Made by a program: the position numbers. Positions 5,401 to 11,400 of a stretch of DNA of 64,000 bases are shown here, in pieces. Numbering within the stretch: the first letter of the stretch is position 1; each line of letters begins with the position of its first letter. The DNA is from Escherichia coli (GTDB lineage: Bacteria > Pseudomonadota > Gammaproteobacteria > Enterobacterales > Enterobacteriaceae). The stretch lies in assembly GCF_024700885.2 (NCBI RefSeq), contig NZ_CP117016.1; one strand, given 5' to 3'.

Positions 5401-8400
5401 CACTCAACTGACCGGCCTGACCGATAAGTGGTTTTACAAACTCATCAAGGATGGTGACTTTCCTGCGCCCATCAAAATGGGCCGCAGCTCCCGATGGCTG
5501 AAAAGCGAAGTGGAAGCCTGGCTGCAGGCGCGTATTGCACAGTCCCGTCCGTAATTCTTAACCGTTCATCTGCAACAGACGCAGTCTCCGGCCTGCCGGC
5601 GGCGTTCTGCTGCCTGTTATCCCCCGTGAGGAATATGAAAATGAAACCACAGTATCAGACCCGTTACGAGCTGCTCCACGAAAGCTACCAGAAATGGCTG
5701 ACCGGCTTCACCCGGCACGCCGTATCCTGGGGCGTGTGTCATCCGAATATCTACTACTTCCATAATCTGACGCCCGGGTGGGTGTCATTCAATGGTGAAA
5801 AACCGGAGATTGCCATCGTACCCCAGAGTCTGCACCGGCTGATTTATGGTCCGGACAAACGGACCACGCCGCCCCTGGATGATGATCTGATAGTGAATTT
5901 ATGCACCAGTGAACATCTGCTGGTTCATCATCCGATGCTGGAAGGCATTCTCCTGTCTGAATGTGAACGTCTGAGGCAGCGTTCGCTGGCAAATAAACTG
6001 ATCAGCCTCTTCCGTCAGTTTGGTGGCACGGAGTTGCGCCTCAAACTGGTCTGGCTTTGCTGGCTTGATTTAATGACCGGAAACTGCCTTGACGACTGGA
6101 CGGAGAATCTGAAACGGAAATCAGAAAAAGAGCTGGAGGAATGGATCATCAACCGTCAGAAGCAGAGCGCAGCACTGACGGATCTGATGGATCAGTACGT
6201 GCTCCTGGCATACCGCACAACGGTTGACGATAAGCGCACCTGATGCCAGTTGTTTCAGGGAAGCTGGTATCCGGGCAGGGTGCCAGGGCTGACTGAACGG
6301 CCTGTCTGCCTGCCGTTTCGCTCTCCGTGCGTTCTGTCACACGCTGCACCTGAACGCCGGACTGCGGGCACGCAGACAGGAAAGTCGCAGGCTGGAACTT
6401 CTGACCGGCGGGTATCAGTTATATGCCTGTTGATTCATCACCACCACGCAGCTCCTGAGCTTTAGTTCATCACCGATATTCATACATCTGAATATCGGTG
6501 ATGAAATCCCCATAATAATCAATCATCTAAGTCTGAAGCATAATGGAGAAAAACTGCTCACCGGTTACTTCGCTCTCAGCTTATTGTAGTGATAACCCGA
6601 GGTAAAAATACCAGAGACATCAGACAACTTTAAACTGGCTATCTGGGGAAGCAGAACATACATGGTTTTTCCTTCCGGCACGACAGAAAGCCTGAACTGA
6701 GATTCAAGAATGTTCAGCAATGCGTTCAGTTTTTTCCTGTTTCTGAACCGACCCGGGCCACACTGGAGAATATAATTTTTCCTGACACGGGGTGGGCATT
6801 CTCCGCGGCACTCCTCAATGAGCCAGTCGAACAGCTCCTCGGCGTCCTTCTGCTGCAGTTCAGATTCATCAGGTAACGCAAATAATTTTTTATATTCATC
6901 TGTGTACCACGAACTTATTACGACAGCAGACGTCATGATATCGGCAGAGATTTTCCCTTCACCATAGCTGAAATACTGAAATAACGCTGCAATTCTTGCA
7001 ATGTTTTCTGTTTTTTTTGAAACATGTCCTCGAAACGGGCTTAAGGGTCCGGAAGGGGATAAATCCTGCTCCAGAACATTATAGTGCTCAATAAATATTT
7101 TTTGCGCTTCAGGCGAAAAATGCAGACAATACCGTTCATCCTCACTGGATTTTTCAATACTGCCTCTGGCCAGTTCCATTAATCGTTCATGAAATGCCGT
7201 TAATAATCCTCCCGGAATCACAGCTCCGTTAATAAAGCGTTTCCCCTGCGTGGTTGCAGGTTTACTGATAAGACAACGGGCAAGAAAACCACTGTCCCTG
7301 GCAACAGAACCTTTTCGCTCCATATATCGGTCAAAAAGACCGGGTTGCACCATGAGGGATAACGTCATTCTGGCATTTTCAATCATCTGTTCGGGTTCAT
7401 TCTTTCTGTCCACAGACAATACAGAGCCATCCCACATTTTGTTAATAAAAGGCAACTCAGACAGGGTATATCCATCAAATATAATACCGGCTTCATCTGA
7501 CATAATACCCACTGAACGCCATTTACCACAAAGCTGATTCTTAATTGCCGCAGTCGTGGCATCATTAAAAATGAATTTATACCTCACAGGTTCTTCCGCA
7601 CTGTTTTTCTGAAGTACTTCCAGTTGTCTGAGGGTTTCTGACTCATCCGCGCCTTTGCGGAGTTCTTTATTCAGTTTTGACAACAATGCTTTTTTCTGAG
7701 CCTTTAAAAGCTCTTCCTTGTTTTTCCAGACAGCCAGTTCACTTTTGTATCTGGAATATAACTGCATCTCCTGCTGGTACAGGGGCTTCATTAATAATTT
7801 GTCCACTGCGGTTTTTCGTTCTCCGGACTCGGCAAGCGTCAGGAAAAAAAGAGAGACCGGCCCCCGCAGTGTATTCAGTCTGCAGACATCAATCAGATTC
7901 TGGCAGACAAGTGAAACAGCGCCCAGGGCAGACGCTGCCACAAGCCCAAGGGGAGCCTGCGTAATTTGCTGAGCTTCAATAACGGCATCACGAATGAGTG
8001 GAGGCAGCGAACTCAGGGGAAACTCATCACAAGGCTGACCGAATGACATAGTAACCTCACTACACACAGATATAAAAGCACTGCAATTCTGGCTATTAAT
8101 AGCAAAAATAGCAGTCAAATCAATATGAGGTAAAAATTTTTGTTGATTTAATGGTTAAATAATAACCACAGTGTGTTTTGCTGCTGAAGAAAGACAAAAT
8201 GAATCTGTGTGTCCCCTCCTTCCCTTCAGAGCACATCCACTATTCAAATTTTACACAACCACGTACGAACAAAAAGCATCATCCCGGGTATTGCAGATAC
8301 CGGTTTCCTGCCGGGATGAATCATAAACAGAACACCGGGAATAACGCCTTCAGGAATCCCCCCCTCCTGAAGAAGAATAAAATAAAGAAGACTACAGTTC

Positions 8401-11400
8401 CTGCACTGTATGCTGAGTACAATATTCTATGGACAGGATGACATATTTATAAATAACAAAAACCATTTAATACTGATACATCAATAAAATACTTCCTCCC
8501 TGCTGACGCAGATAAAATGCACCATTTTTTCTTCAAATACTTCTGTATAATCGCCAGCCAATGATGAGAATGGATTAAAATAACACTTCTTCGACAAACA
8601 CAAAAACAGCCTTCATTTTACATCATCATCCAGTTTCAGTTAACCCCGGACGAGCAACAGCGTTTCAGTACAGGAATTAAAAGCCAGCTTTTGCTCAGTA
8701 AAAACACACTCAACTAATAATATCTCAGCAGATATTATCCTGACCAGGACACCTCACATTACTGAATTCTCTTCCGACAGTATCACTGCACAAATAAAAA
8801 AGAACGGGATAAATATTCAGACCGGAAGAATGGTGTCACAAAAGCATTTAATCATTACGCATGACCAGGAAGGGAAACACTTAACCACATGGTATCAACA
8901 GATATCATTACGTGTGCACCCTTATAAAAAACACACAGAAGAAGTAAGATAATTATAAATGTAAATTTAATATCTCCCACTGACATCTCCCCCACAATAC
9001 ACTGAAAAATACTCACAGCAGTAAACACAGACACACCTGATAATCATGCAGCCGATAAATATTTTCCCCTTTACGGAGAAATCAGCCTGCTGTTTAACAA
9101 TAACGGCGTATTTTCATGGAAGGAGATCACCCAGTAACGGATAAGTCCTGATCTCCTTCATGTTAATACGCAACAATCCCATCGATTAAAAACAATTTCA
9201 GACAGATATTATCTCCGTGAATCCCCCGCCACCTTTCCGGTGCGCGGGATTTTGTCTTTTTTCACCGGGAATACATGTATGAATCCGTCTGATGCCATTG
9301 AGGCAATTGAAAAACCGCTCTCCTCCCTGCCTTACTCGCTTTCCCGTCACATCCTGGAACATCTGCGCAAACTCACCCGTCACGAACCCGTGATTGGCAT
9401 TATGGGTAAAAGCGGGGCCGGTAAATCCTCACTCTGTAATGCACTGTTTCAGGGGGAGGTCACCCCGGTCAGTGATGTTCACGCCGGCACCCGGGAAGTA
9501 CGGCGCTTCCGTCTGAGTGGCCACGGTCACAGCATGGTTATCACTGACCTGCCCGGGGTGGGCGAGAGCCGGGACAGGGATGCAGAGTATGAGGCCCTGT
9601 ACCGTGACATTCTGCCTGAACTTGACCTGGTACTGTGGCTGATTAAAGCCGATGACCGTGCCCTGTCTGTGGATGAGTATTTCTGGCGACACATCCTGCA
9701 CCGGGGACATCAGCGGGTACTGTTTGTGGTGACGCAGGCCGACAAAACGGAGCCCTGCCATGAATGGGATATGGCCGGTATTCAGCCTTCTCCTGCACAG
9801 GCACAGAATATTCGCGAAAAAACGGAGGCGGTATTCCGTCTGTTCCGGCCCGTACATCCGGTTGTGGCCGTATCGGCCCGCACCGGCTGGGAACTGGATA
9901 CGCTGGTCAGTGCGCTCATGACAGCGCTTCCCGACCATGCCGCCAGTCCCCTGATGACCCGACTGCAGGACGAGCTGCGCACGGAATCTGTCCGGTCTCA
10001 GGCCCGTGAACAGTTTACCGGTGCGGTGGACCGGATATTTGACACAGCGGAGAGCGTCTGTGTTGCCTCTGTTGTCCGTACGGCCCTGCGCGCTGTTCGT
10101 GACACGGTGGTCTCTGTTGCCCGTGCGGTATGGAACTGGATTTTCTTCTGAACCTGTCGTGACTGATGCCCTCCCTGACTCTGAGTCTGCTCACAAAAGC
10201 ACTGTTTTCGTTACTGTCTCTCTTGTCCGTGCAATAGCTCAATAATAGAATAAAACGATCGATATCTATTTTATCGATCGTTTATATCGATCGATAAGCT
10301 AATAATAACCTTTGTCAGTAACATGCACAGATACGTACAGAAAGACATTCAGGGAACAACAGAACCACAATTCAGAAACTCCCACAGCCGGACCTCCGGC
10401 ACTGTAACCCTTTACCTGCCGGTATCCACGTTTGTGGGTACCGGCTTTTTTATTCACCCTCAATCTAAGGAAAAGCTGATGAAACGACATCTGAATACCT
10501 GCTACAGGCTGGTATGGAATCACATTACGGGCGCTTTCGTGGTTGCCTCCGAACTGGCCCGCGCACGGGGTAAACGTGGCGGTGTGGCGGTTGCACTGTC
10601 TCTTGCCGCAGTCACGTCACTCCCGGTGCTGGCTGCTGACATCGTTGTGCACCCGGGAGAAACCGTGAACGGCGGAACACTGGCAAATCATGACAACCAG
10701 ATTGTCTTCGGTACGACCAACGGAATGACCATCAGTACCGGGCTGGAGTATGGGCCGGATAACGAGGCCAATACCGGCGGGCAATGGGTACAGGATGGCG
10801 GAACAGCCAACAAAACGACTGTCACCAGTGGTGGTCTTCAGAGAGTGAACCCCGGTGGAAGTGTCTCAGACACGGTTATCAGTGCCGGAGGCGGACAGAG
10901 CCTTCAGGGACGGGCAGTGAACACCACGCTGAATGGTGGCGAACAGTGGATGCATGAGGGGGCGATAGCCACAGGAACCGTCATTAATGATAAGGGCTGG
11001 CAGGTCGTCAAGCCCGGTACAGTGGCAACGGATACCGTTGTTAATACCGGGGCGGAAGGGGGACCGGATGCAGAAAACGGTGATACCGGGCAGTTTGTTC
11101 GCGGGGATGCCGTACGCACAACCATCAATAAAAACGGTCGCCAGATTGTGAGAGCTGAAGGAACGGCAAATACCACTGTGGTTTATGCCGGCGGCGACCA
11201 GACTGTACATGGTCACGCACTGGATACCACGCTGAATGGGGGATACCAGTATGTGCACAACGGCGGTACAGCGTCTGACACTGTTGTGAACAGTGACGGC
11301 TGGCAGATTGTCAAAAACGGGGGTGTGGCCGGGAATACCACCGTTAATCAGAAGGGCAGACTGCAGGTGGACGCCGGTGGTACAGCCACGAATGTCACCC

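Follow-up and report, generated by a model that had tools for sequence, protein, structure and literature searches.

A non-coding gap in a CP4-type island of Escherichia coli ends in a conserved putative promoter, which resembles jumbo-phage early promoters, and a terminator-like leader

The late promoters of the satellite P4 are switched on by Ogr, a transcription factor of the helper phage P2. For Klebsiella phage N1M2 the consensus TBYAWWWWWTTTCARRYAKATATTATYWAAGTGWA has been reported, a near-identical motif is present in Pseudomonas phage OBP, and it was judged to be an early promoter (PMC7058600); such phage motifs, which are centred at the −10 position, are early promoters that are read by the virion RNA polymerase (vRNAP) (PMC7598289). 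The AlpA targets of Pseudomonas aeruginosa, such as PalpB and PPA0807, have an AlpA-binding element between the −35 and the −10 region and an intrinsic terminator shortly in front of the first gene (PMC7969949), and PR′-tR′ of phage lambda with its antiterminator Q belongs to the same kind of systems. In E. coli K-12, the sites upstream of the GTPase genes ykfA and yfjP were identified as binding sites of the RpoD holoenzyme by genomic systematic evolution of ligands by exponential enrichment (SELEX), with the arrangement TTGAAA-15-TATCAT (PMC3946193), and have been described as “constitutive” promoters (Shimada et al. 2014). In the present study a stretch of 64,000 nucleotides (the window), which matches E. 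coli chromosomes with 100% identity, was analyzed. It contains an AT-rich region without long open reading frames (ORFs), which had been delimited to positions 8119-9278 in an earlier note and lies within a CP4-type island, upstream of a GTPase gene of the YeeP/YkfA/YfjP type. The element in question is formed by the last 95 nt of this region.

The region is read here as a non-coding gap, which is composed of a spacer, a hairpin module and a promoter/leader-terminator unit for the GTPase/Ag43 operon, and this reading is given a probability of about 70%. The coordinates of the features are collected in Table 1. The only strongly conserved element, which was overlooked in the earlier note, comprises the last 95 nt (9184-9278), in which a box is followed by a GC-rich hairpin, a T-tract, a ribosome-binding region and the ATG at 9279. 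This terminal module was found in 4170 of the 5426 complete E. coli genomes, at a median of two and a maximum of seven places per genome. Its last ~90 nt are 75-91% identical upstream of GTPase genes of Yersinia, Hafnia, Serratia, Photorhabdus, Salmonella, Enterobacter, Citrobacter and further genera; for the GTPase protein the identity over the same genera is no more than 45-61%, and thus the DNA module is more conserved than the protein. Conservation of the box itself in front of GTPase genes was observed in more than 10 genera. Of 120 metagenome contigs with the box, 100 carry a GTPase homolog directly after it, 19 do not extend far enough for a decision, and one is a jumbo phage. A second copy of the module, which comprises the box, a hairpin formed by AACGGCAGAATC..GATTCTGCCG, a U-tract and a ribosome-binding site, was observed in the CP4-57 island of K-12 upstream of ypjI/lfgA (locus L002, 22442-22545). 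It precedes the ypjI pseudogene and antirestriction-like genes, and the module is therefore not strictly tied to an intact GTPase gene.

Within the box, a −10-like sequence TATTAT (9207-9212) and a −35-like sequence TTAAAA (9186-9191) are separated by a spacer of 15 nt. A9208 and T9209 are invariant and T9212 is identical in 22 of 22 representative homologs, i.e., the A at −11 and the T at −7 that characterize a sigma-70 −10 element are present. Judged from the position of the −10 sequence, transcription would start near 9219-9220. The arrangement of the K-12 SELEX promoter places the −10 element at the position that is assigned here. The K-12 copies upstream of ykfA and yfjP, which were detected with a position weight matrix (PWM) and not by blastn, have a homologous box, a hairpin, a U-tract and a ribosome-binding site in front of paralogous GTPase genes. 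They differ in the TATCAT variant, in the sequences of their stems and in the lack of the 1.1-kb spacer, the gaps being 328-354 bp long.

Downstream of the box, 9 of the 12 nt that follow the stem 9225-9248 are T, and the leader thus combines the GC-rich stem and the U-tract of an intrinsic terminator. Among 27 distinct homologous leaders, 25 have a hairpin of 7-11 bp that is followed by 8-10 T within the next 12 nt. The stems have at least five unrelated sequences, and the distance between the stem end and the ATG is constant at 27-31 nt. Comparison of the leaders argues that their structure is conserved rather than their sequence. RNAalifold did not return any structure for a MAFFT alignment of the leaders, because hairpins with unrelated stems were misaligned, and the register was likewise lost in a second alignment. 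The hairpins were therefore measured sequence by sequence and not from an alignment. A possible outer helix would enclose the terminator, with the beginning of the transcript paired to the Shine-Dalgarno region. Many homologs have a longer version that includes CTC/GAG over this region, and the helix is present in the minimum free energy folds of most homologs with differing sequences (CUCAGUG/CACUGAG, UCCUGAA/UUCAGGA, CUCUGAA/UUCAGAG). The outer helix is regarded as tentative, because a part of its 5′ strand lies upstream of the predicted transcription start.

Several points speak against the proposed reading. The candidate −35 sequence TTAAAA is weak, its 15-nt distance deviates from the usual 16-18 nt, and the site was omitted by a consensus scan. 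In Pectobacterium homologs the hairpin is present and the T-run is absent, and the Term-seq supplements of PMC7815308 have no entry for ykfA or yfjP. The leader hairpin could act as a 5′ stabilizer instead of a terminator, and it is possible that the unit is a plain constitutive promoter with a stabilizing 5′ hairpin. Two properties of the spacer also do not fit well. Its length is held at 1184-1331 bp across all variants, which is not obvious for pure junk, and a strand asymmetry with A>T and C>G over ~1.1 kb is left unaccounted for by the interpretation as a spacer.

A scan of viral contigs for the box led to Erwinia jumbo phages, which have several copies each. One of them, vB_EamM_Huxley, encodes a multisubunit RNA polymerase of its own in a genome of 240,761 bp, and it contains 23 copies of the box on the + strand compared to 1-3 copies in shuffled genomes. 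A PWM that was built from the 23 Huxley sites alone yielded 35.9 bits at window position 9184, while the next best score in the 64 kb was −0.9 bits; Huxley's own sites reach 26-54 bits. In 534 kb of island and bacterial loci all PWM matches of at least 18 bits were located upstream of GTPase genes, with two exceptions, namely the second CP4-57 module upstream of ypjI and a site in Escherichia albertii. The latter (locus L015, 11510-11620) is a very strong phage-type box of 43.2 bits without a terminator. Its position is downstream of a patatin-like gene, and behind it a phage-like ribosome-binding site, ATAAGGAGT, and a mini-ORF of 8 codons (MKFIVKNV) are found. Reciprocally, a PWM of the island sites detected 18 sites in Huxley and none in 10 shuffles. 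The consensus base is common to both groups at 19 of 20 informative phage positions, and the information profiles are correlated (Spearman 0.64, p 4e-6). Behind about half of the Huxley copies, a short AT-rich hairpin begins around +1 to +3 (e.g., GAGATTA..TAATCT), sometimes with a T-run (L067-L071), and the copy at 93807 resembles a full intrinsic terminator.

The similarity extends to the published phage consensus. Between the island sites and the 35-nt N1M2 consensus 1-10 mismatches (mostly 1-7) were counted, compared to 22.5 expected by chance, and the site of the window has 5 mismatches in 35 positions. At degenerate positions of the N1M2 consensus the island sites use the same alternative bases, and the box shares with the phage motif the degenerate bases Y at position 7 and K at position 9. 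When the 35-nt island consensus was compared by blastn with 50,697 phage records, 240-kb jumbo phages were among the best-ranked matches. They include phages of Salmonella (SPN3US, SPFM), E. coli (vB_EcoM_EC001, Lh1B), Erwinia, Proteus, Serratia and Aeromonas, and among the matches listed most of the jumbo phages have the motif at 6-10 intergenic places per genome. The box shares with the phiKZ-related early promoters of OBP, N1M2, SPN3US, phiEaH2 and Machina the ~35-37-nt consensus, the A/T-rich upstream part, TTTCARRYAKATATTATY and nnGTGA, and the site of the window scores inside the range of the Huxley sites. In contrast to the phage promoters, which occur in ~20-30 copies per genome, the box is present once per island, on a chromosome, in front of one gene family, and it is followed by a strong GC-rich terminator. 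The box thus looks like a phage early promoter, but it is not assigned to the family of phage promoters, since its location is outside of a phage genome and its recognition by a vRNAP is predicted from the sequence. Homologs of the GTPase were not found in jumbo phages, which makes a simple capture of gene and promoter from such a phage unlikely. A literature search of limited extent did not reveal any mention of the match between the island box and jumbo phages.

These observations suggest a switch, in which RNA polymerase would initiate near 9219 and transcribe a leader of ~58 nt up to the ATG. Most of the transcription would end at the U-tract and yield an RNA of ~40 nt, and the GTPase/Ag43 operon would be kept at a low level. 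Expression of the operon would require that a modified or a different polymerase reads through the terminator, and candidate triggers are the vRNAP of a jumbo phage and an island-encoded AlpA/Q-like antiterminator. That the GTPase operons of CP4-type islands in E. coli and other Enterobacterales are generally controlled by a jumbo-phage-type early promoter, with the terminator filtering out the host polymerase, is a tentative proposal with considerably less than even odds.

It is tempting to speculate that the box is a sensor of jumbo-phage infection, at which a SPN3US-like vRNAP initiates and passes the terminator that halts the host polymerase. The GTPase operon would then be switched on only in infected cells, either for defense or for hitch-hiking or mobilization of the island. 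A vRNAP as trigger would account for the conservation across exactly those positions that are informative in the phages: the match covers ~37 nt, including positions outside of the sigma-70 elements, with the same degenerate bases. The box is under strong purifying selection and linked to the GTPase gene, the same hosts are infected by phages with the motif, among them vB_EcoM_EC001 and Lh1B of E. coli and SPN3US of Salmonella, and genes downstream in some islands encode dynamin-family and patatin-like proteins. The vRNAP is kept out of the phage nucleus (PMC13282480), but the early vRNAP has been reported to act inside the infection vesicle, which makes access to the chromosome unproven and counts against the proposed switch as a whole (PMC13282480). 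Furthermore, in vitro binding to the K-12 homologs is known for the sigma-70 holoenzyme of the host, and the PADLOC matches of the GTPase to LeoBC and LeoA, which would point to a defense role, are weak; a literature link between Eleos/LeoBC and jumbo phages was not found. With this evidence on both sides, an infection sensor is regarded as a possibility, and rather an improbable one. It would resemble the P4/P2-type satellite promoters in that the element is silent until the transcription machinery of a phage is present. It would differ in that the trigger would be the phage polymerase itself and not an activator, and that genes for capsid hijacking are lacking; moreover, the element is known here from its sequence.

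Alternatively, an island protein could bind the promoter spacer TTTCAGAYAGA and load onto the host RNA polymerase, which would then bypass the leader terminator as well as later terminators, including that of IsrC, by processive antitermination. The candidate is the AlpA-family helix-turn-helix (HTH) protein encoded at 5348-5551, or another protein. The layout is the same as at the AlpA targets of P. aeruginosa described above, i.e., the promoter spacer contains a conserved element, an intrinsic terminator separates the promoter from the first gene of a long operon, and a gene of the AlpA family (PF05930) is present nearby in the island. At least 10 loci of other genera contain a homolog of this gene with 68-84% identity, at a distance of 1.4-2.7 kb upstream of the GTPase gene, and the long downstream array on the same strand includes IsrC/IS102 with its terminator-like 3′ hairpin. 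In these other genera (L018, L020, L023, L024, L026, L029, L031-L033) the AlpA-family gene is oriented divergently and is more conserved than the GTPase gene, and in most of the loci an AT-rich ORF of 306-410 aa on the + strand occupies the space up to the box. However, the best matches of the HTH protein to solved structures are weak (E ~1e-4) and comprise an AlpA-family phage regulator and the excisionase TorI, and consequently its conservation may reflect an excisionase role; none of the structure matches is named P. aeruginosa AlpA by its depositors. Several loci with the box lack an AlpA gene within 6 kb, the box copies of the jumbo phages are left unexplained, and phage Huxley has no convincing AlpA homolog. 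The box also has no similarity to the AlpA element GGGACGN5GGTA, the leader of ~40 nt is short compared to the 194 nt in P. aeruginosa, and, unlike in the lambda system, a Q homolog is not present. An AlpA/Q-type mechanism is therefore judged to be doubtful, and slightly more so than the infection sensor.

Between the spacer and the terminal module a stable hairpin module of 66 nt is located. The same hairpin is found in phage P-EibC immediately 3′ of eaaC, with a stem_loop annotation by the depositors, and on the plasmid pVir68 3′ of cdtC; the ETEC4079 variant lacks it. Its behavior is that of a recurrent terminator-like cassette, and, as far as can be judged from these occurrences, it would not be a part of a local gene.

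The unannotated gap is longer than had been assumed and extends from 8050 to 9278 (1229 bp), because the YfjI-family gene starts with the ATG at 8049 and the GTPase gene starts at 9279. The TTG at 8118 is the end of a mechanical ORF and not the actual start of the YfjI-family gene. The GC content of positions 8119-9278 is 0.385, and the value for the 1257 tiles of 1160 nt in the window is 0.533 ± 0.042. An equally low content was obtained for only 3 of these tiles, and each of them overlaps the AT-rich stretch, which is thus the region of lowest GC content in the window. The most negative GC skew of the window was found for the tile 8201-9360, which also overlaps the stretch. The composition of the + strand of the gap is 36% A, 26% T, 23% C and 15% G. 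The longest complete ORF comprises 87 aa (8178-8441) and is intact in none of six variants; shuffled sequences of the same composition have a longest ORF of 70 ± 18 aa and reach at least 87 aa in 15% of the cases. The scarcity of ORFs is therefore what is expected for non-coding DNA of such a composition. In those of the 4176 matching E. coli records that were listed, annotation by the Prokaryotic Genome Annotation Pipeline (PGAP) did not include any feature or pseudogene under the match. The earlier note is thus borne out in its description of a strongly AT-rich region that lacks a credible ORF apart from a weak one of 87 aa and that belongs to horizontally acquired DNA, as it sits within a CP4-type island. 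A match to an intact protein-coding gene, which would have spoken against this description, was not obtained with Pfam and tblastn.

The bulk of the gap is the spacer. Its center was found in 1906 of the 5426 complete E. coli genomes, and in every locus inspected it was unannotated and situated between yfjI (−) and the GTPase gene (+). The bulk was not found outside of E. coli, and E. albertii and eleven other genera match the last ~90 nt only. Comparison with three K-12 CP4 islands by blastn did not yield a match, and K-12 lacks the spacer; in plasmid and phage collections the spacer was found only in misfiled chromosomes, and apart from these only the 66-nt hairpin was detected. The seven variant classes are 75-89% identical in the spacer, while in the flanking genes the third codon positions are 87-98% identical, i.e., the spacer diverges as fast as these positions or faster. 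Alignments of the variants have 49-240 gap columns with indels of 1, 2, 5, 7, 29 and 71 nt, which are not multiples of three, and the conservation profile is flat at ~0.8. Of 23 ORFs with at least 15 aa only one is kept in six of six variants, and this ORF of 18 aa lies inside the conserved terminal module. An insertion of 71 nt with an internal palindrome, GATCACGGTTTGGCCAAACCGTGATC, was observed in the 88% variant class (L005 ~4785-4855, uk_P46212; insertion near window position 8853), and it may be a miniature mobile element.

The earlier note had suggested that the stretch may hold decayed gene remnants. A source could be the AT-rich gene of 310-384 aa that is located directly upstream of the box in other islands; its size (1152 nt in L007) is close to that of the ~1.1-kb gap, and the gene and the gap share a high AT content and an A-rich + strand. 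However, when seven gap variants were searched by tblastn with all ORFs that precede the GTPase gene in other islands, only the shared 90 nt of DNA were retrieved, a Pfam search with the ten longest ORFs gave nothing above the curated cut-offs (best E 0.017), and a PGAP pseudogene is not present. In addition, C exceeds G in the spacer while G exceeds C in those upstream genes, the indels break reading frames, and the longest ORF equals the shuffle expectation. A decayed gene is thus very unlikely, and this suggestion was abandoned.

The second suggestion was that small RNAs are encoded in the stretch. The spacer could represent a long non-coding RNA, several small RNAs or a long untranslated leader, e.g., a C-rich and G-poor transcript of the + strand for the loading of Rho or a G-rich yfjI leader on the − strand. 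The strand asymmetry and the constant length would fit to this view, and a few promoter-like and terminator-like sites are present. However, promoter-like sites are not enriched (5 compared to 3.6 ± 1.8 expected in a consensus scan) and terminator-like sites are not enriched either; a scan of positions 7000-11000 with Rfam 15 at E≤1 returned only IS102/IsrC, which is outside of the stretch. The divergence at or above the synonymous level and the flat conservation also argue against an RNA, and the internal hairpin with the best conservation (8279-8318) was not accepted as a structure, as one variant breaks its pairing without compensation. An RNA function of the spacer is therefore improbable, although less so than a decayed gene. 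With respect to small RNAs, the suggestion fails for the bulk of the stretch, which has no Rfam match and diverges in a neutral-looking manner, while it is partly retained for positions 9184-9262, for which a transcript of ~40 nt is predicted.

Tandem repeats and iterons as in the origin of a phage-inducible chromosomal island were not detected in the stretch, and its direct repeats are short, two-copy and chance-like. From the sequence comparisons it is concluded that 8050-9105 is a weakly constrained spacer and not a decayed gene or a structured RNA. At most, it would have diffuse roles in regulation or in the binding of nucleoid proteins and would contain the yfjI promoter region. An imperfect palindrome in its left part (Table 1), which is conserved among the variants at 0.82-0.86, may be an operator or a promoter-region element of the divergent yfjI. 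Silencing of the stretch by H-NS/Hha is plausible, judged from its high AT content. As in silenced island DNA, a GC content of 38% in a background of 53% is found together with a nearby Hha-family gene, since near-identical and variant copies of the island carry hha a few kb upstream. The strong strand asymmetry is unlike H-NS sites, for which it is no trait, and the resemblance is known here from the composition.

The order of genes in the CP4-type island is an AlpA-family HTH gene, a gene for a hypothetical protein of 200 aa, the YfjI-family gene (−), the gap, the GTPase gene (+), IsrC/IS102, Ag43 and the usual downstream genes. IsrC carries its own terminator-like hairpin with a U-run inside the same-strand array. 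The Ag43 gene (10479-13598) has a 1-nt deletion at 12767 compared to the near-identical copy in SLK172 and is split into ORFs of 834 aa and 250 aa, and thus it is either a pseudogene or contains a sequencing error. In some islands (L007 4099-8098; L015 6001-11456) the GTPase gene is followed by genes for dynamin-family, RdcB-like and patatin-like phospholipase proteins instead of Ag43. This set looks like defense or membrane-remodeling genes; its PADLOC matches to LeoBC and to phospholipase effectors are weak. Island DNA of the E. coli type, with 94-100% identity at the GTPase region, was also found on contigs that are labelled as metagenome-assembled genomes of Lachnospiraceae or Collinsella (L014, L039, L042-L044), and these copies are probably binning contaminations.

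Table 1. Positions of the features in the window and the evidence for them.
Feature	Position	Strand	Evidence and remarks
YfjI-family (DUF3987) gene, left border of the gap	6565-8049	−	Pfam DUF3987, E 6.7e-96; annotated as YfjI family in identical genomes
AT-rich, G-poor non-coding spacer, E. coli-restricted, fast-evolving	8050-9105		Composition, variants, null searches
Imperfect palindrome, 19-nt arms	8080-8115		84% complementary; 31-66 nt upstream of the yfjI start
Stable hairpin module, 66 nt, two GATC sites	9106-9171		ΔG −30 kcal/mol, z −6.1
Putative promoter box GATTAAAAACAATTTCAGACAGATATTATCTCCGTGAATCCC	9184-9225	+	Conservation, K-12 SELEX homologs, phage PWM
Possible outer helix enclosing the terminator	9217-9271	+	GTGAA (9217-9221) pairs with TTCAC (9260-9264)
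Intrinsic-terminator-like leader element	9225-9262	+	Stem-loop 9225-9248 (9 bp, ΔG −15.2 kcal/mol), T-tract 9250-9262
YeeP/YkfA/YfjP-type GTPase gene	9279-10151	+	Pfam MMR_HSR1 9.4e-15, Dynamin_N 1.9e-9; first gene of the downstream same-strand array
IS102/IsrC small RNA	10255-10458	+	Rfam RF00124, 253.5 bits, full model; between GTPase gene and Ag43

For the biology of these islands, the bulk of the spacer is ordinary island DNA, which is gene-free and fast-evolving, and it can be removed from the list of candidates for hidden genes or RNAs. The terminal module, in turn, is built like a promoter-proximal terminator switch and precedes the arrays of “cryptic” islands that are led by YeeP, YkfA or YfjP. 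A literature search on yeeP yielded nothing informative, and to our knowledge neither the regulation of these island arrays nor the function of the GTPase has been established. We also know of only few dedicated defenses against jumbo phages and of no chromosomal targets of jumbo-phage polymerases. If true, the phage link could connect widespread islands with jumbo phages via a switch that senses a polymerase.

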